Part shown: piece after piece, positions 1,742 through 14,402 of the stretch
How positions within the stretch are numbered: position 1 is the stretch's first letter
Layout: each line of letters begins with the position of its first letter
NCBI GenBank assembly: GCA_048938445.1
Contig: JBHLME010000113.1
Coordinates: 1-14,570, forward strand
Direction of reading: 5' to 3'
Source of the DNA: Promethearchaeota archaeon
GTDB lineage: Archaea; Asgardarchaeota; Lokiarchaeia; Sigyniarchaeales; SOKP01
Length of the DNA stretch: 14,570 nt
The notes under the pieces: generated by a model
Seen by the model: the letters and a program-made list of their open reading frames with translations, nothing else
Databases searched by the model: none
Told to the model about the DNA's origin: nothing
Translations under genes and position numbers: made by a program

Positions 1742-2899
1742 ATGGGAAAGTATAAAATAGTTGTATTACCTGGTGATGGAATTGGTCCCGAGATAATGAC
1801 AGAAGCATTAAAGGTCTTAAATGTCATTGAAGATATTTTCAATAATATCAATTTTGAATTTATAAAATATGAATGTGGTGGTCAATATTGGTTAAAAACA
1901 GGCCGTAAAGAAGAATGGCCAGTAGAAGCATATGAAACATGTAAGAATGAATCAGATGCCATCTTATTGGGAGCAATCGGGTGGACAGATCCTACCACAG
2001 GTAAAACTGTTTCATACCCTAATGGTAAAATGGTAGGTCTCGAAGTCCTTTTTGGATTAAGATTTGGTTTAGATCTCTATGCGAACATAAGACCAACTAA
2101 ATTATATGAGGGAGTACAACATAAAATTTCTGGTGAGTTTCGACAAGTTTGGAAACCAGAAAATGTAGATTTTGTGTCAATCAGAGAAAATACTGAAGGA
2201 TTATATGCTGATACACATGGAAATTTAAAAAGAAATGAGATTATTGAAGTTGCTACGGATTGCAGATTAATAACACGGAAGGGTTCTGAAAGAGTTATCA
2301 AATTTGCATTTGAATACTGTAAGAGAAGGAATAAAGGTTCACCAAAAGATGGCAAGCTAAGAGTAACATGCGTGGATAAAAGTAACGTGACTGCGGGATG
2401 TAAATTATTCCGTCAAATTTACCAGGAAATTGCTCCAAAATATCCAAATATTGAAGAAGACTATGCTTTTATTGATGCCTTTACTCAATGGATAGTTCGC
2501 ACACCGGAATGGTTTGATGTTTGCGTGATACCAAATATGTTCGGAGATATTGCCACAGATCTGGCTGCTGTTCTTCAAGGGAGTTTGGGAATGGCCGCTA
2601 GCGGGAATGTAGGTGATAACTATGGGATGTTTGAACCTATACACGGTTCTGCACCAAAACATGCTGGCAAAAACATTATAAATCCAATAGCAACAATATC
2701 AGCAGCTCAAATGATGTTAGATTGGTTATCAATGAGGAATAACAATGATCCCGATTTAAAGAAAGGTGCTAATCTAATTGAAGAAGCTGTTCAATCACTC
2801 CTTAAAGAAGGAAAGGTCAGAAGTTATGATTTGGGAGGAAATTCAAGTACATCTGCAGTTGGAGATGCTATTTGTCAAAAGTTAAAAGAAATCTCCTAA
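1742..2899 (+). CDS. Second isocitrate/isopropylmalate/tartrate dehydrogenase family protein, substrate uncertain, NADP-type signature
   Basis: GDGIGPEI, DAILLGAIGW, LRFGLDLYANIRP, IRENTEGLY, VDKSN, NMFGDIATD and EPIHGSAPKHAG motifs. A purine-rich GAGTGAGGG precedes the ATG. Confidence 0.9.
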   Translation: MGKYKIVVLPGDGIGPEIMTEALKVLNVIEDIFNNINFEFIKYECGGQYWLKTGRKEEWPVEAYETCKNESDAILLGAIGWTDPTTGKTVSYPNGKMVGLEVLFGLRFGLDLYANIRPTKLYEGVQHKISGEFRQVWKPENVDFVSIRENTEGLYADTHGNLKRNEIIEVATDCRLITRKGSERVIKFAFEYCKRRNKGSPKDGKLRVTCVDKSNVTAGCKLFRQIYQEIAPKYPNIEEDYAFIDAFTQWIVRTPEWFDVCVIPNMFGDIATDLAAVLQGSLGMAASGNVGDNYGMFEPIHGSAPKHAGKNIINPIATISAAQMMLDWLSMRNNNDPDLKKGANLIEEAVQSLLKEGKVRSYDLGGNSSTSAVGDAICQKLKEIS

Positions 2900-2954: not shown

Positions 2955-4508
2955 TTATCCTCTTATTGCTGAGAGCATAACAATTAACTCATCAAAGATT
3001 TCTAATCTATATTCACCCCCAATTTTAAAAAATAGCAAGGAAACAATCTTTTCTTCCAACAATTCATTAACATTCATTTCCTCCATTAGTTGGGACCAGA
3101 CAACATTTTCAGAAATTCGAATTCCAATTAACACGACTTTATTCTCTTTAATTGCTTTAATAATTTTAATAACCATGGTTTTCCAAGAAGGGGCTATATG
3201 TTGTCTCTGTCTTGCATCAAATATACAAAAAACGCCATCATCTTCTTCCGAAATAGTAAATGTATCATAAAGAAAATTTTTTACGACCAACCCATTTAGA
3301 TATTCATAAATTTTTTCTCCCTTAGTATCCTTAATTCTAGCATATTTACCCAATTGGCTTATTTCCGTTATAATTTGTAATCCTGGGCTCCAAAATTCAT
3401 TTTCAGCTATAAAAGTCAGGTTTAATTTACTTTTTTCATTAAGAATCGATAAAATTTCTTTTGAAATAGTTTCTTTCAACCTTTCTTCTTCCCTCTCTTT
3501 GCTCTTCATTATAAAATGATATGATATCAAATTGAAAGCATCCTCTATATTTAATCCAGATAAAGCACTTGTTTCTATGTAAGAAATATGAGACTTTCCT
3601 TTTTGTGAAAGAAAAGAAGCTTTATTTGAACCTTCTTCAGTGCTAATGACTCTTTGATCTTCTAAATCAGTCTTATTTCCTATTATTGTTACCGGTAAAT
3701 CCTTATCTCCAATAAATTCATTAAGTTCTTCAACCCAATTATCCAAATTATCAAAACTTTCACGATTAGTGATATCATAGACTATGAAAGCTGCTTGTGC
3801 TCCTTGATAATAGGCTTTTCTAAAGCGTTTAAAATATTTTTGAGCACCTACATCAAAGAGAGAAAGACAAATTTTATTTCCAAATGCTTCAAATTCATGA
3901 GATAGAATATTTAATCCTATTGTTGCTCGATAATCGTGAGTAAATTTATTCTCAACAAATCTCCTTACAATGGAGGTTTTTCCGACTTCATGATCTCCTA
4001 TAATAATGAATTTAAATTGGAATGTCCCTCCAGATTCTAATCTTAATTGATAAACTTGATGTTTGAGTCTTTGAAATTCAGAAGCACCTTGGTCAAAATG
4101 TGGTAAAATAAATTGAATGTTATCTTCTTCAGTAGCAGTAAGAATTTGAGCAACTTTTTCTGCTAAGAAAAAAGCATAAGGGGAGAATTTGTCAATAGAT
4201 GCCATATTGTTAATAACCAAACTTAAGGTAATTTTTTCATCAACACTAATGAAGAGAAGTCTATGAGCATCAGTATCAAATGAAGCATTACCAAACTTTT
4301 TAAATGAAAATTCATCTCGAATTCTTTCTAAAATTGGATTTATGATTCCAGATAAAACTGAAACTATTTCCATGTCAATATCTTCACGTTTTTCTCCTCC
4401 AATTATCAACCCATCGGCGTCAGACACTATAATAGCTTCAGTTTCATCATTTACTTCAATAAAATTTTTCATCAATGTAGAAAGAAGGTCAGGCCTGTTA
4501 ATTGTCAA
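2955..4508 (-). CDS. Roadblock/LC7 domain + Rab-like small GTPase + C-terminal alpha/beta domain fusion (517 aa)
   Basis: aa 1-124 show the Roadblock pattern (EAIIVSDADGLII...LLFISVDEKITLSLV). aa ~163-335 contain G1 GDHEVGKT, G2 YRATIG, G3 DVGAQ, G4 NKTD and G5 ETSAL, plus Rab-like YYQGA and IVYDIT. No C-terminal Cys prenylation motif. TTG start at 4508, alternative ATG at 4472. Confidence 0.92.
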   Translation of the reverse strand: MTINRPDLLSTLMKNFIEVNDETEAIIVSDADGLIIGGEKREDIDMEIVSVLSGIINPILERIRDEFSFKKFGNASFDTDAHRLLFISVDEKITLSLVINNMASIDKFSPYAFFLAEKVAQILTATEEDNIQFILPHFDQGASEFQRLKHQVYQLRLESGGTFQFKFIIIGDHEVGKTSIVRRFVENKFTHDYRATIGLNILSHEFEAFGNKICLSLFDVGAQKYFKRFRKAYYQGAQAAFIVYDITNRESFDNLDNWVEELNEFIGDKDLPVTIIGNKTDLEDQRVISTEEGSNKASFLSQKGKSHISYIETSALSGLNIEDAFNLISYHFIMKSKEREEERLKETISKEILSILNEKSKLNLTFIAENEFWSPGLQIITEISQLGKYARIKDTKGEKIYEYLNGLVVKNFLYDTFTISEEDDGVFCIFDARQRQHIAPSWKTMVIKIIKAIKENKVVLIGIRISENVVWSQLMEEMNVNELLEEKIVSLLFFKIGGEYRLEIFDELIVMLSAIRG

Positions 4509-4711
4509 ACGACTTATTCACAATTCTACTTTTTTTTTATTGTATCAAATAATAAAAATATTCTCTTTTAAACATATTTTTAAATTTGGAATTTTATTAT
4601 AAATTTGTATTTTTTCGAGTTTACCATTGAAAAAAGAATATTTTCTAAAAATATAATACCATTTGAGTATATTCATTTGATCATAAATTAAAAAAATGCT
4701 GTTAGGGAAAT

Positions 4712-5284
4712 ATGAAGTGCCTTATATGTCACAAGGATATTAATGAATTGAATATTGAAGAAAGAGTTGATTGCCCCAATCATCATTCAGTTCATACAGA
4801 CTGCTTAAAAGAATGGTTTAGTCATTCAAAGAGCTGTCCTTTATGTAGCGAACCATATTCTCAGCTTATTATCAATAAATATAAAAGCTATTTCCAGCAA
4901 AAAGAAAAAGAAGAGCAAGAATTTTTAGAAAAAGAAAAAAAAGAACAAGAGATTATTACAATAAAAAAAATTGCTGAAAAAATTGAATTTAAGAAATACA
5001 TTGAAATTATTGAAAAAAATTTTACTGAGAATAAAATCGGAGAAGCATTGGATAAAATTGAAGCATTAACCTCAAAATTTGGAAACAACCAAAAATTTGA
5101 TATAATGTTTTTAAAAGGAAAAGCCAATTACTTGAGAGGTCGTTATGACATGGCAATAAATTTTCTTTTTAAGTTAGTAAAAGAGCAATTTGACTTCCCG
5201 GAGGCATTCTTATATTTAGGAAAATCATATGAGGCCTTAGGTCTTGAAGATAAAGCAAAATGGGCATATGATCGAGTTAAATAA
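4712..5284 (+). CDS. RING-H2 zinc finger / coiled-coil / TPR protein, putative E3 ubiquitin ligase
   Basis: C3-x2-C6...C21-x3-H25-x2-H28-x2-C31...W35...C42-P-L-C45 matches RING-H2. An E/K/Q-rich helix follows (QQKEKEEQEFLEKEKKEQE). The C-terminus has TPR-like helices (FLKGKANYLRGRYDMAINFL; PEAFLYLGKSYEALGLEDKAKWAY). Confidence 0.88.
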   Translation: MKCLICHKDINELNIEERVDCPNHHSVHTDCLKEWFSHSKSCPLCSEPYSQLIINKYKSYFQQKEKEEQEFLEKEKKEQEIITIKKIAEKIEFKKYIEIIEKNFTENKIGEALDKIEALTSKFGNNQKFDIMFLKGKANYLRGRYDMAINFLFKLVKEQFDFPEAFLYLGKSYEALGLEDKAKWAYDRVK

Positions 5285-5315: not shown

Positions 5316-6722
5316 ATGGATAAAATCCATAATATTTGTTTAACAATAGCAGGAGCTGATCCGACTTCAGGGGCAGGAATTCAAGCAGATATAAGGACAT
5401 TTGATCGTTGTGGTGTCCATCCATTCTCAATTGTCACAGCTCTGACATATCAAACTGCTACAGATTTCTTTGGGTATACTTCATTGTCAGATCATTTAGA
5501 AGATCAATTAAAATCAATTTTTGAGCATTATGCTATTAAATATGTTAAAATAGGAATGATTCCTGATCTTAATTCTTTAGAAATCATCTTAAAGTATATA
5601 AAAATGTTCGATTTATCTGTCATTTATGATCCTATAACCATATCTAGTACAGGTGAACGTCTATCTAATGAAGGTATTGAAAAAAATTTGGAAAAAGAAT
5701 TATTTCCTGTTGTTAAAATACTTACTCCAAATATTTCTGAAGCATTATTTTATTCTGGAATGAAAACCAATGACTTGAGTTTAAAAAATATCATAGTAAT
5801 TAAGAAAGTTGCGAATCTCATTTTAGAAAAATTATATCGTAATTCTAATCATTATGAAGTTGAAAAAGCAGTCATTATCAAGAATGCAATTACAACTAAA
5901 GATAAAGTGATTGATTTAGCCTTGATTAATAAAGATACTGAAAAAGGTCTTGAAAAAGTTTATCGGACTTATGAAAAAAGAAAATTAGAATTTCAAGGTA
6001 ATGTACATGGAACAGGTTGCATTTTTTCTTCAGCTATCACTGCTTTTCTATGTCAAGGTAATAGTTTAGAAACAGCAATTAAAATGGCAGAGGTTTTTTT
6101 TGATGAAAAATTCCAAAAATTCATTGAATTACCAAAAAATGGTAAACTGATTGATTTAACATTAACAGAAGATAAATTAGATGTAATTAATCAGATTAAA
6201 GAAATTTATTCTTATGTTTCAACAATAAAAAAATTTTCAGTGTTGATTCCTGAAGTAAGGTTAAATATCTCTGGATCCTTGCCTAATGCTCAATCTAAAA
6301 ATGAAATCGCGGGAATAGAGGGTAGGGTTACTATAATTAATGGATATCCTCATGCTTCGGGGCAGATAAAATTTGGAGTATCTGATCATACAGCAAGGTT
6401 GATATTGGCAGCAAAAGAATTTGATAAATCGATAAATTTTGCTACAAATTTAAAATATGATGAAAAAATTATCAAATTAATTCAAGAAAAGACTGATTTA
6501 TTTACTTATGAATTTATAAGAGAAAGTCAACCTGATATAGTTAAATTAAAAGAACATTCAACTATGCAATGGCTAATTAAGGAAAGCATTGAAAATACAG
6601 GAAAGATACCAGATATAGTATGGGATAAAGGTGCCATAGGGAAGGAACCTATTATGAGAATATTTGCTAAAGACTCTCATGATATGATCTCTAAACTTGA
6701 TAAAATTATAAAAGTCATTTAA
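5316..6722 (+). CDS. thiDN: Bifunctional HMP/HMP-P kinase - thiamine-phosphate synthase (ThiD-ThiN fusion)
   Basis: N-terminal ThiD motifs: TIAGADPTSGAGIQAD, VKIGM, DP, LTPNISEA, HGTGC. C-terminal ThiN motifs: LIPEVRLNI, IEGRV, FGVSDHTAR, PDIVWDKGAIGKEPIMRIF. Confidence 0.93.
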   Translation: MDKIHNICLTIAGADPTSGAGIQADIRTFDRCGVHPFSIVTALTYQTATDFFGYTSLSDHLEDQLKSIFEHYAIKYVKIGMIPDLNSLEIILKYIKMFDLSVIYDPITISSTGERLSNEGIEKNLEKELFPVVKILTPNISEALFYSGMKTNDLSLKNIIVIKKVANLILEKLYRNSNHYEVEKAVIIKNAITTKDKVIDLALINKDTEKGLEKVYRTYEKRKLEFQGNVHGTGCIFSSAITAFLCQGNSLETAIKMAEVFFDEKFQKFIELPKNGKLIDLTLTEDKLDVINQIKEIYSYVSTIKKFSVLIPEVRLNISGSLPNAQSKNEIAGIEGRVTIINGYPHASGQIKFGVSDHTARLILAAKEFDKSINFATNLKYDEKIIKLIQEKTDLFTYEFIRESQPDIVKLKEHSTMQWLIKESIENTGKIPDIVWDKGAIGKEPIMRIFAKDSHDMISKLDKIIKVI

Positions 6723-8696: not shown

Positions 8697-10004
8697 TTAT
8701 TTCTTTTTTTCAATAGCAGCTTTTAGGATCTTAATAGCACAGAATTCACCGCACATACTACATGCACCATCATCTTGCGTCGTGTGTTCATCTCTATAAT
8801 GAATTTTTCTTGACGTGTCTGGATCAATTGATTGATTTATCATTTCATCCCAATTTAGATCCTTACGGGCAATATCAATTTTATAATCCCATTGTGTAGC
8901 TCTTTTTCCATATCGTGCAATATTAACTGCATGAGCCGCAATTTTGGAGCATATCACTCCTCTTTTAACTTCTTCTTTATTTGGTAGTGCTAAATGCTCT
9001 GAAGGAGTTACATAACATAAATAATCCACTCCCGCCATACCGGCAATCACTCCCCCAATGGCAGATACTATATCATCATATCCAGGAGCAATATCAGTTA
9101 CTAAAGGACCTAACACGTAAAATGGGGCTCCATCGCATAAAGATTTCTGCATCTTTATATTACTTTCGATTTCATGAGCAGGCACATGTCCAGGTCCTTC
9201 AACTATGACTTGCACGTCCCTTTCCCAAGCTCTCTTTACTAATTTAGATATTTCGAGGAGCTCTTGAACTTGAACATAATCAGTAGCATCAAAAATACAA
9301 CCAGGCCTCATCCCATCTCCTAATGATAGAGTAAAATCATATTCTCTTGCCATTTCAAGTAAATAATCATACTTCTGGTAAAAGGGATTCTCTTGTTCAT
9401 TTTCGAGAATCCAAGCCGCTAGGAATGTTCCACCTCTAGATGTAACGCCCATCATGCGAGGATGATTTTTTAAAAAGTTAACAATTTCTTGAGTAACGCC
9501 AACATGAACCGTAAAGAAATCTACTCCCTCTTTTGCTTGCTCTTCTATTACATTGAATAGGTCATCCTCATCTAAGTTAATAATGGCACCTTTTTTTTCG
9601 ATAGCTCTCAGTGCTGATTGATAAATTGGAACGGTTCCAATAGGTACTTTTAATTCTTTTAAAATTTTTTCTCTTATTGTTATAACATCCGATTCAGTAA
9701 TGCCAGTACTCAAATCCATTACTGTATCTGCTCCGTATTTAACAGCGATTTGTGCCTTCTCAAGTTCACCTTCAATAGAGCATACTTTTTTACTTGAACC
9801 AATATTAGCATTAATCTTAACTAATAAACCTTCTCCAATACCTATTGGCTTTTCTAAATCTCGGATGTTTGATTTAGGAATGACAATTCTACCTTTTGCC
9901 AGACCTCGTTTTATAAATTCAACATCAACCTGTTCACTTTTAGCGACTATTGCCATTTCTTCTGAAATCTTTCCATTTCTAGCTTGATTCATTAATGTGG
10001 ACAA
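8697..10004 (-). CDS. thiC: Phosphomethylpyrimidine synthase ThiC (short archaeal type, radical SAM)
   Basis: KINANIGSS, GADTVMDLST, GTVPIYQ, SRGGT, SLGDGMRPG, EGPGH, PFYVLGPLVTDIAPGYD, YVTPSEHL and C-terminal Fe-S motif CSMCGEFC. TTG start with AAGGT upstream. thiDN lies nearby. Confidence 0.93.
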   Translation of the reverse strand: MSTLMNQARNGKISEEMAIVAKSEQVDVEFIKRGLAKGRIVIPKSNIRDLEKPIGIGEGLLVKINANIGSSKKVCSIEGELEKAQIAVKYGADTVMDLSTGITESDVITIREKILKELKVPIGTVPIYQSALRAIEKKGAIINLDEDDLFNVIEEQAKEGVDFFTVHVGVTQEIVNFLKNHPRMMGVTSRGGTFLAAWILENEQENPFYQKYDYLLEMAREYDFTLSLGDGMRPGCIFDATDYVQVQELLEISKLVKRAWERDVQVIVEGPGHVPAHEIESNIKMQKSLCDGAPFYVLGPLVTDIAPGYDDIVSAIGGVIAGMAGVDYLCYVTPSEHLALPNKEEVKRGVICSKIAAHAVNIARYGKRATQWDYKIDIARKDLNWDEMINQSIDPDTSRKIHYRDEHTTQDDGACSMCGEFCAIKILKAAIEKKK

Positions 10005-10605: not shown

Positions 10606-11070
10606 TTAATACATTTCTAATTTTTTTAAGAGTTCAATTAAAGATTCGGTTAGTTCATAATTCCTTAACTTGTTAAATGGTACAAATTTCGCATCTAACG
10701 CATCATCGTCTGCCATTGGAGCTTGATCAGCTGGACCTTCAACTTGTTCGACAAAATAATTTAGTAAAACGTAATGATACTCGATTTTTCCCTCATCATC
10801 GTGCATTATTTTATTAATGATTCCTGCTAAACTTGTAATTTTTGTTTTAAATCCTGTTTCTTCGAGAGTTTCCCTAATAGCGGCATCTTCCACAAGTTCG
10901 CCTAAGTTTAGATGCCCTCCCGGAATGCTCCAATATCCTGAGTCTGGATTATACTTGCGTTTAATTAAAAGGAGCGTATTGTTTCTTATAAGCATCGCAC
11001 CCACGCCAATGTGAGGCCTAATAGGATAATGCCGGGTATCATATACTGTCAAATCTTTTTCATTTTCCAA
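10606..11070 (-). CDS. Nudix hydrolase (ADP-ribose pyrophosphatase-like)
   Basis: Nudix box GGHLNLGELVEDAAIRETLEETG, plus R.YP.RP.IGVGA, WSIPGG, YHYVLL and DDALDA. TTG start 6 nt after the upstream stop, with a GGTGA SD overlapping that stop. Confidence 0.92.
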   Translation of the reverse strand: MENEKDLTVYDTRHYPIRPHIGVGAMLIRNNTLLLIKRKYNPDSGYWSIPGGHLNLGELVEDAAIRETLEETGFKTKITSLAGIINKIMHDDEGKIEYHYVLLNYFVEQVEGPADQAPMADDDALDAKFVPFNKLRNYELTESLIELLKKLEMY

Positions 11071-11896: not shown

Positions 11897-13762
11897 TTAA
11901 TTCTTATCTTTTTTCTTATATTGTTTAACTGATAGGATGATTGTAGTTATACTTATAATTCCCATAAAAAGGAATAGATCATATCCAGGAATCTTTTGTT
12001 CATAAGGGAATATTGTAAATAAAGCATCAGATTGGTCTTCAGCAATGAGACCTCCAGAACAATAAGCAATCACTTTTATGAGGGTTTCACTTGAATATCC
12101 AATGGTTATTACATCCCATAAGTAACTATTTATCATTAATCCTGTTGCTAAAGAAATCCAAGCACTCCCATTTACAGAGTATTGAACTTCATATGTTACA
12201 CTATGCCCCCATGAATCTATAGCTGGAGCCCATATTATTGTATGACGACTATAAATTATCTCTCCTCCATTTGGAGTTAAAATAGTTGGATTAGATAAGA
12301 GATGAATATTACTAAAATGGTTAGTAACGTATCCAGGATTAGTTGTAGGAACATCTGGAGACTCATTTGTTGTTTCAACTAAAACACCAGAACTATTATA
12401 TTTCTTAATTTTAAAGGAAGAAATTGTTCCAGAAATGCTTGAAGCACCAATGCTCAAGAAAAAATTGATATCTGGGTCAACAGAGTAATATGCATAAAAT
12501 TCAGAAATGTCTAAAGTCATATAGGTTGGAAAAAAATTTAAATTATCATTATAATAATCAGGGATTATAGTACTATATGCTGATCCATAAGGTCCTACTC
12601 CTAGTGTAATTATATCATCCATTCGAGTAGGTGCTGAAGAAAATGTCCAATTAGCAATTAAAGTTGGTTGATAATCGATTCTATCTTCTAAATATAATAT
12701 ACCTCCCCATCCTTGTATTTCCTTAAAAGCCTCATATGTCAACCAGTAATATCCATTATCGGCAAATCCCGTACCCCAAGAATTTACTACTTTAAAAGCA
12801 CCTAGATCACCATCATCTGATATAGAATCATTATATCCAACAATCGTATTCGCATGATCTATAGTAATAGATGGAAGATTATATTCTAAAGAAGATATAA
12901 TATAATTTGAATCTGCAAATCCGTCATTATATTCACTTGAATTAAGGCAAAATGATACTGGAGTGCCTCCATCAATAATACTTTTGATAGTATTAATTAT
13001 TGTTCCAGCATTAAATGTTATTAAGTTATAGTCAAGAGCTCTATGATATGGTGCCTCGTTCCAAGCAGTTGAATTACCCCAACTATCAAAATCAAAAGGA
13101 TTATATGGCATTGCAGCTAATGTTGCAGCACCCCATTGTTTTAATATCTCTGCATTTTCAAATAGAGTTGATCCAGAATTATCAACAGCTAGTTTATTAT
13201 ATGCCCAAGCAGGACTTAATAAACAACTTTCATTTCCAGAACTTGCATCCCAACCGTTATCTTTTGCTTCAAGATATCCCATAGAATAATACACGACAGA
13301 CCATGAAGCACAAGATCCTTGACTTCCCTGAGATCTAACTTGAGGAAAATAAGTTTCATTAGATAAATCATTGGCAACCGCCGAAGTTTTTAGATTTTTC
13401 TGTAAATTTTCTTCCTTATATTCCTCCAAAATCATTAAATGTCCAACTAAATTATTTAAATCATTTTCATTAGGAAGTAACGCTCCAGTTCCTCTGAAAC
13501 CATTATCAATTTCACCATTAATATTTATATTATTTGTTATTTTCATTTCCTCAACTTTTTCTTCAGAAATTATCTCAGCTAAATATTTTTTGCCATTTAT
13601 TAGATGCACAATGGTTGAACTTCTATTATATTCACCTTCATTATTCTCATATTCATTTATTAAATTACTGTTTTCAATGATAAACTGGAAAGAGAAATAT
13701 GCAATATTTATAAAAATAAAAAAAAATAATAGCAAGGATTTTATTTGATTTGTTGACTTCAA
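11897..13762 (-). CDS. Secreted, C-terminally anchored papain-like (C1) cysteine peptidase with pro-region and beta-sandwich domains
   Basis: N-terminal hydrophobic segment (LLLFFFIFINIAYFSF). Catalytic motifs QGSQGSCASWS (oxyanion Gln and Cys), DHANTIVGY (His) and KVVNSWG (Asn), plus GYYWLTY. PTILTPNGGE marks an Ig/FN3-like domain. The tail is IPGY + TM + KQYKKKDKN. TTG start. Confidence 0.92.
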   Translation of the reverse strand: MKSTNQIKSLLLFFFIFINIAYFSFQFIIENSNLINEYENNEGEYNRSSTIVHLINGKKYLAEIISEEKVEEMKITNNININGEIDNGFRGTGALLPNENDLNNLVGHLMILEEYKEENLQKNLKTSAVANDLSNETYFPQVRSQGSQGSCASWSVVYYSMGYLEAKDNGWDASSGNESCLLSPAWAYNKLAVDNSGSTLFENAEILKQWGAATLAAMPYNPFDFDSWGNSTAWNEAPYHRALDYNLITFNAGTIINTIKSIIDGGTPVSFCLNSSEYNDGFADSNYIISSLEYNLPSITIDHANTIVGYNDSISDDGDLGAFKVVNSWGTGFADNGYYWLTYEAFKEIQGWGGILYLEDRIDYQPTLIANWTFSSAPTRMDDIITLGVGPYGSAYSTIIPDYYNDNLNFFPTYMTLDISEFYAYYSVDPDINFFLSIGASSISGTISSFKIKKYNSSGVLVETTNESPDVPTTNPGYVTNHFSNIHLLSNPTILTPNGGEIIYSRHTIIWAPAIDSWGHSVTYEVQYSVNGSAWISLATGLMINSYLWDVITIGYSSETLIKVIAYCSGGLIAEDQSDALFTIFPYEQKIPGYDLFLFMGIISITTIILSVKQYKKKDKN

Positions 13763-13916: not shown

Positions 13917-14402
13917 ATGGTGCGTCCATGGTATTGGCCTGAAGGTGGTCAACCACACAGAACAGAACCATTCACGTGGATTATTAAAGGAAAGATGGCA
14001 GCATCTTGGTGGCCCGATCCTCCAGTTTTTGAAATATATAAAAAAGAAGGTATAAAAGTAATCATTAATTGCTCGGAATTTGATTATCGCAATGAAATTC
14101 CAGAAGGATATAAATACTATCATATAAATATATCCGATTATGGGATTCCATCAGAAAGTCAATTAAATCATTTTCTTGAAATTACAGAAAAACACGGAAA
14201 AAATAAAGAACCAATTGTAGTTCATTGTGTAGCTGGATGTGGTCGCACGGGACAAATGATAGTAGCATGGGGCTCAGCAAATGGAATCATACCAAAAAAT
14301 ATGGATCCCGTTAAATGGATACGAAGTTATAGAAAATGTAGTCTTGAGACTAAAGAACAAATGGCTCTTGCTAGAAGGATTGCTAATAAGCTAAAGAAGT
14401 AA
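13917..14402 (+). CDS. Dual-specificity / protein-tyrosine phosphatase, DUSP23-like single domain
   Basis: P-loop VHCVAGCGRTG (CX5R), acid loop ISDYGIP, N-terminal FTWIIKGKMAASWWP and C-terminal IRSYRKCSLETKEQ. Confidence 0.92.
   Translation: MVRPWYWPEGGQPHRTEPFTWIIKGKMAASWWPDPPVFEIYKKEGIKVIINCSEFDYRNEIPEGYKYYHINISDYGIPSESQLNHFLEITEKHGKNKEPIVVHCVAGCGRTGQMIVAWGSANGIIPKNMDPVKWIRSYRKCSLETKEQMALARRIANKLKK

Follow-up and report, generated by a model that had tools for sequence, protein, structure and literature searches.

A RING-H2/TPR-like gene in a 14,570-bp stretch of archaeal DNA lies against thiamine (vitamin B1) genes in two archaeal families, and in one of these it also shares a divergent spacer with a small GTPase gene. 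The stretch (hereafter the window) is the entire contig JBHLME010000113.1 of the Promethearchaeota archaeon assembly GCA_048938445.1; it has a G+C content of ~30% and belongs to a 4.6-Mb genome in 256 contigs that is 96.5% complete with 8.2% contamination. The gene at 4712..5284 on the plus strand, identified by its open reading frame (ORF), Pfam matches and orthologs, encodes a 190-amino-acid (aa) protein with a RING-H2 finger, a charged linker and a TPR-like end, which we call RING-TPR. The gene at 2955..4508 on the minus strand, identified by its ORF, translation and matches to Pfam Ras and NCBIfam small_GTP, encodes a 517-aa GTPase with a TTG start and a TAA stop. The two diverge from a 203-bp, A+T-rich spacer (4509..4711) that holds the putative promoters of both, exactly as reported in a preliminary description of the window made from its letters alone. 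We propose, with a probability of roughly 0.4 and on the basis of sequence comparison, that RING-TPR is a ubiquitin ligase (E3) whose TPR end would recognize thiamine-pathway proteins or an adaptor, and that the GTPase, which in the home family shares its regulatory region, may gate it.

To place the pair in its evolutionary context we compared the home family (f1), its sister family in the same order (f2) and two further families (f3 and f4). A first sample of 36 home-family and 14 sister-family genomes was searched for orthologs of RING-TPR and the GTPase; a second sample comprised 80 species-representative home-family loci, which overlap the first sample and are not independent of it. Counts in the 80-locus set are given per testable loci (denominators 79, 73, 69 and 58). 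Outside the home family there were 15 RING-TPR loci, 13 in the sister family and one in each of the two further families.

In the window, thiDN lies 31 nucleotides (nt) downstream of RING-TPR on the same strand (5316..6722) and encodes hydroxymethylpyrimidine phosphate (HMP-P) kinase fused to ThiN thiamine-phosphate synthase (Phos_pyr_kin 3e-48, ThiN 3e-46). Farther along are thiC, encoding HMP-P synthase (8697..10004, minus strand; Pfam ThiC_Rad_SAM 4.7e-184), and, closing the thiamine block on its far side, a NUDIX hydrolase gene (10606..11070, minus strand; Pfam NUDIX 1.8e-20). This arrangement is widespread in the home family. In 46 of 69 loci ThiDN is directly downstream of RING-TPR, on the same strand and at a distance below 200 nt; ThiC is within 5 kb downstream in 54 of 58, and one or the other is within 5 kb in all 58. 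The block of IDH1, GTPase, RING-TPR, ThiDN, ThiC, NUDIX and a dual-specificity protein (DSP) phosphatase was syntenic in each of the first 20 home-family loci. In the sister family the 3' end of RING-TPR lies against thiamine genes in all 13 orthologs, with differing gene content. Eight of the 13 loci have a ThiB/ThiP/ThiQ-like ATP-binding cassette (ABC) transporter; its substrate-binding protein matches the thiamine-type NCBIfam model TIGR01254 (174.6 bits vs 93.4), and for its double-domain permease the best match is ThiP. Three have a ThiW fusion together with a conserved 233-aa ORF, and four have ThiDN, ThiN, ThiC or Thi4, two of these four also falling in the ThiW group. The 5' neighbors of RING-TPR vary in the sister family (a hydrolase, Alba, a proteasome subunit and others), whereas the thiamine side at the 3' end is constant. 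In each family a NUDIX gene marks the distal limit of the cluster, next to either ThiC or the thiamine ABC genes.

Since the thiamine link spans both families, the thiamine cluster appears to be the older and wider partner of RING-TPR and the GTPase an addition specific to the home family. With thiamine neighbors in two families and the GTPase in one, the target of RING-TPR may be vitamin B1 metabolism rather than the GTPase. The preliminary description, which took the GTPase as the genomic partner of RING-TPR, missed this deeper association (13/13 sister-family and 58/58 home-family loci). One home-family genome (G028, 92% complete) has none of RING-TPR, the GTPase ortholog and ThiC. The conserved ORF of the ThiW-type clusters is a candidate for an unknown thiamine-related gene; it measures 232-233 aa (L025:5769-6470, L029:1118-1819 and L026:8146-8844, all on the plus strand) and gave no Pfam or NCBIfam match. 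It occupies the interval between ThiW and RING-TPR in L025 and L029, and in L026 the interval between ThiW and ThiDN, downstream of RING-TPR.

The N-terminal end of RING-TPR is a RING-H2 domain (residues 2-45, 4715..4846, plus strand). It scores 31.4 bits against Pfam zf-RING_2 (gathering score 27.3) as the window protein and 34.3 bits in a six-frame search of the genome, where six zf-RING_2 candidates were found at E<=0.01; two exceed the cut-off and one of these is RING-TPR. The zinc-ligand pattern is C3-x2-C6-x14-C21-x3-H25-x2-H28-x2-C31-x10-C42-x2-C45 (C3H2C3). The RING-H2 consensus reads C-x2-C-x(9-39)-C-x(1-3)-H-x(2-3)-H-x2-C-x(4-48)-C-x2-C, and the spacing in the window protein falls inside it. 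All eight ligands (C3, C6, C21, H25, H28, C31, C42 and C45) are invariant among 26 aligned orthologs drawn from four families, as are W35 and P43, and position 5 is I or V. From c-Cbl-type RING structures we take I/V5, W35 and P43 to be positions of contact with the ubiquitin-conjugating enzyme (E2); W35 and P43 are presumably not zinc-binding. The finger is followed by a Lys/Glu-rich linker and a helical C-terminal domain (residues ~107-189, 5030..5278, plus strand), which is supported by TPR matches in orthologs and by a block of conserved C-terminal motifs in the 26-sequence alignment. The TPR assignment of the preliminary description stands for the orthologs, which pass the Pfam cut-offs (TPR_11, 26.9 vs 26.8; TPR_1, 32.5 vs 27.8), and falls short for the window protein itself, whose best TPR match is TPR_11 at 16 bits vs 26.8. 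No DNA-binding domain was found in RING-TPR by Pfam and NCBIfam scans.

Orthologs of RING-TPR are present in 33 of 36 home-family and 13 of 14 sister-family genomes, and the 347 protein clusters matched at E<=1e-5 carry only the names RING finger, TPR repeat or hypothetical. Its structural neighbors in the ESM Atlas, which serve as leads only, are eukaryotic RING proteins. Judged from its sequence, RING-TPR most likely acts as a true ubiquitin ligase that binds E2, and its TPR end would hold a substrate or adaptor. Two variants of the gene were seen. In G018:C37:17011-17522 the RING-TPR frame is interrupted (one TAG, two pieces), either as a pseudogene or through an assembly error. In one sister-family genus the ortholog forms the C-terminal part of a protein of 570-699 aa (L023:6801-8900, minus strand; L030:5487-7199, plus strand; L031:4212-6239, plus strand); ~400 intervening residues have no Pfam match, and two of the three long proteins (L023 and L031) have a second RING-like stretch at the N-terminus.

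An E3 would depend on partners encoded elsewhere. Genome searches gave two ubiquitin-like genes over the cut-off, five genes resembling ThiF-type ubiquitin-activating enzymes (E1) and three UQ_con E2 genes over the cut-off, all on other contigs, where they are partly clustered, with three E1-E2 clusters; the window contig had no ubiquitin, E1 or E2 match. This bears out two earlier statements, that the window itself is free of ubiquitin, E1 and E2 genes and that Asgard genomes hold ubiquitin components, as the source genome does outside the window. Given the 8.17% contamination of the assembly, it is likely, not certain, that these genes and RING-TPR belong to one organism. At G000:C80:30054-30915 and C80:45430-46488 two further pairings were seen, one of a ubiquitin-family with a Ras-family gene and the other of an E1-like gene of the ThiF type with a Roadblock gene; these neighborhoods may be due to chance, because the genome has 88 Ras-family and 26 Roadblock matches.

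The GTPase was identified by Pfam Ras (E 1.3e-44, residues 166-328; 152 bits vs 21.6) and NCBIfam small_GTP (72 bits), so that, with the zf-RING_2 match, each of the two genes does carry a eukaryote-like domain. Its home-family orthologs are 52-85% identical, and the TTG start at 4508 aligns with their ATG starts. The G domain (residues ~160-330, 3519..4031, minus strand) has intact G1-G5 motifs. Residues G171, G176, K177, T196, D219, G221, Q223, N278, K279, D281, S314 and A315 do not vary among 21 orthologs, and T178 is nearly invariant. As the P-loop, the switch-I Thr, DxGAQ with the catalytic Gln, NKxD and SA are all retained, the protein should bind and hydrolyze GTP. Foldseek matches this domain best, at 28-36% identity, to Rab8a, Rab6, Rab21 and a Rab from Thorarchaeota; the region includes a stretch that is poorly modelled (predicted local distance difference test, pLDDT, <50 at residues 139-239 in the full-length AlphaFold2 model). 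Rab proteins proper carry prenylatable cysteines at the end of a flexible C-terminal tail. The window protein lacks a C-terminal Cys motif, and what comes after its G domain is a long helix and then a folded domain of 150 residues; we therefore consider it Rab-like in fold and not a Rab.

The two ends of the GTPase are less easily classified. Residues 1-123 (4140..4508, minus strand) adopt the topology alpha-beta-beta-alpha-beta-beta-beta-alpha in the AlphaFold2 model (pLDDT 39-84). Their top profile match in the PDB is a Roadblock/LC7 protein, 7yh1, at a non-significant E of 0.12. Pfam Robl_LC7 (PF03259) gave no match at E<=1 on the GTPase, in the protein scan or in the six-frame genome search, and Pfam, phmmer and profile searches were all without a significant match for this domain. 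Robl_LC7 does match 26 other places in the genome, including weak N-terminal matches in paralogs (C111, E 0.13). The Roadblock domain of the preliminary description is thus in keeping with the modelled topology and unsupported by Pfam; "Roadblock-like" is a reasonable but unproven label. At the other end, the long helix and final domain (residues 336-517, 2958..3503, minus strand) were modelled alone, as a fold search with the full-length model had returned Rab matches only. This model is of high confidence (pLDDT 94.4; predicted template modelling score, pTM, 0.90), and Foldseek aligns it to Arf1, Arl1, Sar1 and HodArfR1 with template modelling (TM) scores of 0.5-0.6 at 10-16% identity. A profile search of the PDB matched Rho6/Rnd1 (E 4e-4); phmmer against the PDB gave no match, so that the domain is resolved only by profile and fold searches. 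Since the ortholog alignment has neither GxxxxGK[ST] nor NKxD in this domain, which has a small-GTPase fold, we regard it as a pseudo-GTPase domain. These assignments undercut the analogy to Rag GTPases drawn earlier. Besides a Rab-like G domain, the protein has its Roadblock-like part at the N-terminus and a GTPase-like fold at the C-terminus, and its Gtr1_RagA score of 15.7 bits does not reach the cut-off (22).

Divergent adjacency of the GTPase and RING-TPR at less than 400 nt was found in 77 of 79 home-family loci. At the other two the pair lies within 1.5 kb, with a membrane-protein gene or its remnants in the spacer, and the 80th locus has just 655 nt upstream. Likewise, a full-length GTPase is divergent and adjacent in 31 of the 33 home-family genomes that have RING-TPR; one exception is interrupted by contig ends (G003), and in the other (G026) the assembly is split, which leaves the initial 33 residues of the RING beside the GTPase. 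On its other flank the GTPase adjoins IDH1 in 8 of 73 loci. Tandem GTPase copies (at least two) are present in 52 of 80 loci, one copy always standing beside the RING gene, and this duplication partly accounts for the loss of IDH1 adjacency. In four genomes of one genus (G012, G022, G029 and G035) the RING-adjacent copy is 52-53% identical to the GTPase of the window and a copy elsewhere 61-62%, indicating that orthology is not simple there. In G027:C216:2144-3661 the GTPase adjoining RING-TPR has two in-frame stops, reflecting a pseudogene or an assembly error.

Outside the home family the pairing is not seen: none of the 13 sister-family loci, and neither of the two loci in f3 and f4, has a GTPase of the window type beside RING-TPR. 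At two of these 15 loci an unrelated Ras-family gene of 193 or 226 aa is nearby, which is about chance level given 88 Ras-family matches per genome. Full-length GTPase homologs do exist in f3 and f4 (31-37% identity), in a context of FMN_dh, GTPase, B12-radical-SAM and GluRS genes, with FMN_dh directly upstream in 4 of 4 f4 loci. No RING or thiamine gene is near these homologs in f3 (L160) or f4 (L161, L162, L163 and L164). The FMN_dh/GTPase/radical-SAM/GluRS arrangement is tight and operon-like though the functions are unrelated. Because these homologs are found among housekeeping genes, adjacency at the level of a family is weak evidence by itself. A single GTPase-RING adjacency is not rare by chance (88 Ras-family matches, six RING candidates); its conservation exceeds chance. 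The preliminary description had looked to conservation of the adjacency in relatives, and this is seen within the home family (77/79) and is absent outside it (0/13 and 0/2). Structure prediction of the complex with alignments of the GTPase and RING-TPR scored 0.00 against a mark of 0.32, which gives no verdict either way.

The spacer varies in length from 104 to 282 nt (median 179) among the 77 loci. In the window it contains an element of ~19 nt (~4565-4586) in which a short core separates two TATA-like halves; one or both genes probably use this element as their promoter core. The element is kept in all five same-genus spacers and found in only 4 of 78 home-family spacers; a TATA-like 10-mer is present in 38 of these 78, and only generic A+T-rich TATA-like words recur across the family. 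In one species a gene for a 329-aa multi-pass membrane protein lies inside the GTPase/RING-TPR spacer (L116:6886-7875, plus strand), and in a related species the same gene is broken into pieces of 92 aa and 67 aa (L081:7262-7811, plus strand).

The gene models, domains, invariant residues, synteny counts and the presence of ubiquitin, E1 and E2 in the genome are observed; that RING-TPR has E3 activity, that its substrates are related to thiamine and that the GTPase plays any part are inferences. In this proposal the RING end of RING-TPR would recruit an E2 and the TPR end would bind a substrate or adaptor. The E3 could then act on thiamine-pathway proteins or transporters, providing post-translational feedback or quality control. 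In the home family alone, the GTPase would have been recruited beside the RING-TPR gene, using a common promoter region, and may act there as a switch or a co-regulated partner of RING-TPR. A fuller version, in which a RING-H2 E3 dedicated to thiamine tunes the abundance of enzymes or transporters by ubiquitylation and is gated by the GTPase in the home family, would amount to a prokaryotic nutrient-responsive GTPase-ubiquitin circuit; we consider this version quite improbable.

Several observations weigh against the thiamine-directed E3. The home and sister families belong to one order, so the thiamine association may trace to one ancestral arrangement, and RING-TPR could be a mere border gene of a thiamine cluster remodelled in place. 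No thiamine link is seen at the single f3 locus (L032) or beside the weak f4 homolog (L035). The persistence of the FMN_dh/GTPase/radical-SAM/GluRS order over two families indicates that unrelated genes can remain neighbors, and the TPR score of the window protein is below the Pfam cut-off. The 31-nt gap before thiDN opens with a run of seven T straight after the stop codon; this run could be an archaeal terminator or part of a promoter, which leaves co-transcription of RING-TPR and thiDN inferred at most. An Rfam search of the whole window (E<=1) gave no thiamine pyrophosphate (TPP) riboswitch or other RNA element, the sole match being Ref64 at chance level (25.5 bits vs 44.3). Finally, the Thi4 of the genome resembles the catalytic, non-suicide type (7rk0, E 9.5e-78, vs yeast 3fpz, 8e-19). 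Clearing of spent suicide Thi4 was considered as a role for RING-TPR and rejected, as this Thi4 is closest to the catalytic archaeal/bacterial enzyme.

Other explanations of the locus have to be set against these data. RING-TPR and the GTPase may be a dedicated pair, with RING-TPR as an E3 that ubiquitylates the GTPase or is switched by its GTP/GDP state, both genes under joint control from the spacer between them, and the thiamine genes as bystanders. This idea and the thiamine-directed E3 are mutually compatible; taken by itself we consider it unlikely. It draws on a divergent junction that is retained at 77 of 79 loci (104-282 nt) and in 31 of 33 genomes next to a far less stable IDH1 flank (8/73), on the tandem loci (52/80) in which one copy always stays beside the RING gene, and on the TATA-like element kept within the genus; a G domain with all catalytic motifs would also be capable of switching. 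Yet the adjacency is confined to the home family (0/13 in f2, 0/2 in f3 and f4), and the f3 and f4 GTPase homologs keep company with FMN_dh, radical-SAM and GluRS genes, with no RING gene near. The entire block from IDH1 to the DSP phosphatase is syntenic, so descent alone accounts for much of the conservation; the spacer holds a membrane-protein gene in one species and remnants of it in another, and the analogy to Rag fails.

Descent could be all there is, with the GTPase, RING-TPR and the thiamine genes functionally unrelated in a clade that is young relative to its rearrangement rate. We judge this somewhat unlikely. Block-wide synteny in 20 of 20 loci is what it would predict, the FMN_dh/GTPase/GluRS order, which serves as a control, persists in two other families, and with 88 Ras-family matches a GTPase beside any gene is not rare. 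It does not readily account for RING-TPR staying by thiamine genes in all 13 sister-family loci despite changes in their identity, order and strand, with variable 5' neighbors and only the 3' thiamine side constant, or for a GTPase/RING junction that survives at 77 of 79 loci where neighboring junctions break (IDH1, 8/73; ThiDN, 46/69). A last explanation removes RING-TPR from ubiquitylation altogether and makes the finger a zinc-stabilized module for interactions or nucleic-acid binding; the protein would then be a scaffold or a regulator, such as one controlling the expression of thiamine genes. There is no ubiquitin, E1 or E2 gene at the locus, and with no TPP riboswitch in the window thiamine regulation must use something else. 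This explanation nevertheless seems very unlikely to us in view of a RING-H2 domain over the Pfam cut-off with canonical spacing and invariant W35 and P43, the full ubiquitin/E1/E2 set in the genome and the failure of Pfam and NCBIfam to detect a DNA-binding domain.

Comparison with known systems places both proteins near eukaryotic counterparts and apart from them. RING-TPR resembles eukaryotic RING-H2 E3s (zf-RING_2; RNF24-type) in its C3H2C3 spacing, the helix Trp and the Pro before the last Cys pair. It differs in its archaeal host and in its layout, an N-terminal RING that leads through a charged linker into a short domain of TPR type, and its gene is in a vitamin-biosynthesis cluster outside the ubiquitin/E1/E2 clusters of the genome. 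CHIP/STUB1 is a quality-control E3 built from a TPR, a coiled coil and a U-box, and LONRF-type E3s combine TPR and RING. By analogy, RING-TPR may similarly unite an E2-binding finger, a helical linker and a TPR module in one protein, and the TPR part of LONRF1, an ESM Atlas neighbor, aligns to its residues 83-190 (TM 0.50). The domain order of CHIP is reversed relative to RING-TPR, and CHIP has a U-box in place of the zinc-binding RING-H2; no sequence homology of RING-TPR to CHIP or LONRF was found beyond the domains. The GTPase, for its part, recalls Rag/Gtr GTPases, which RING ligases regulate, in that a Ras-superfamily G domain is joined to a putative domain of Roadblock type and a RING protein is encoded close by. 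The Roadblock dimerization domain is C-terminal in Rag and the Roadblock-like domain N-terminal here, however, and the best structural matches here are Rabs. MglA/MglB is a Ras-like GTPase with a Roadblock-fold GTPase-activating protein, and the same pairing of folds may occur here within one polypeptide; by analogy, this suggests that the N-terminal domain could regulate hydrolysis or dimerize the GTPase. The window G domain differs in that it retains the catalytic Gln of Ras (Q223) and matches Rabs, rather than MglA, best. Fusions of Roadblock and GTPase (RB-GTPase) have already been described in Asgard archaea, and the text of that study assigns RB and longin fusions to a Rag/Arf-like class (Tran et al. 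2024, PMC10933270). The window protein would share with these fusions a small GTPase with an N-terminal domain of Roadblock type; it appears to differ from those treated in that text in its Rab-like G domain, an N-terminal domain too divergent for Pfam and an extra Arf-fold tail.

RING-H2 fingers and Asgard RB-GTPase fusions are thus known kinds. A full-text literature search returned no description of the gene pair or of a RING/thiamine link in Asgard archaea, and we could not find in print the back-to-back pairing over ~80 species or, above all, a RING gene attached to thiamine clusters. Nor did the literature text searched mention an Arf-fold GTPase tail without a P-loop, a point on which the architecture figures of PMC10933270 may bear. 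The roles and substrates of Asgard ubiquitin ligases, like the functions of many Asgard small GTPases, are essentially unknown, and the locus offers a testable handle: it encodes a small RING-H2/TPR-like protein whose presumed E2-binding surface is invariant, it names candidate substrates (ThiDN, ThiC, the ThiBPQ-like transporter and ThiW) and a candidate switch (the GTPase), and there are relatives in cultured Promethearchaeota lineages of the sister family. Should the thiamine link be functional, it would be the first substrate-specific ubiquitin signaling tied to metabolism in archaea, and the circuit outlined above, if true, would predate comparable eukaryotic circuits, such as nutrient signaling of the Rag type and the down-regulation of vitamin B1 transporters through ubiquitin. 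If the link is not functional, the locus would serve as a caution that adjacency in slowly rearranging genomes need not mean common function.

The remaining genes of the window include the metabolic neighbors noted in the preliminary description. Pfam identifies two tandem Iso_dh genes (579-1643 and 1742-2899, plus strand) and an AMP-binding ligase in addition to ThiD/ThiN and ThiC, and a PIG-L-like gene is also present. The first Iso_dh has orthologs of 68-81% identity within the home-family block; the second is ~40% identical to the orthologs of the first and was not found as a separate gene at other loci. The DSP phosphatase (161 aa, 13917-14402, plus strand; Pfam), another eukaryote-like signaling gene near the pair, accompanies the block in many home-family loci. 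A 621-aa papain-family protein (Peptidase_C1; 11897-13762, minus strand) ends with a Loki-CTERM sorting domain (21.3 bits vs 19.9), which fits the Asgard assignment of the organism, and is probably a surface-anchored or secreted cysteine protease.

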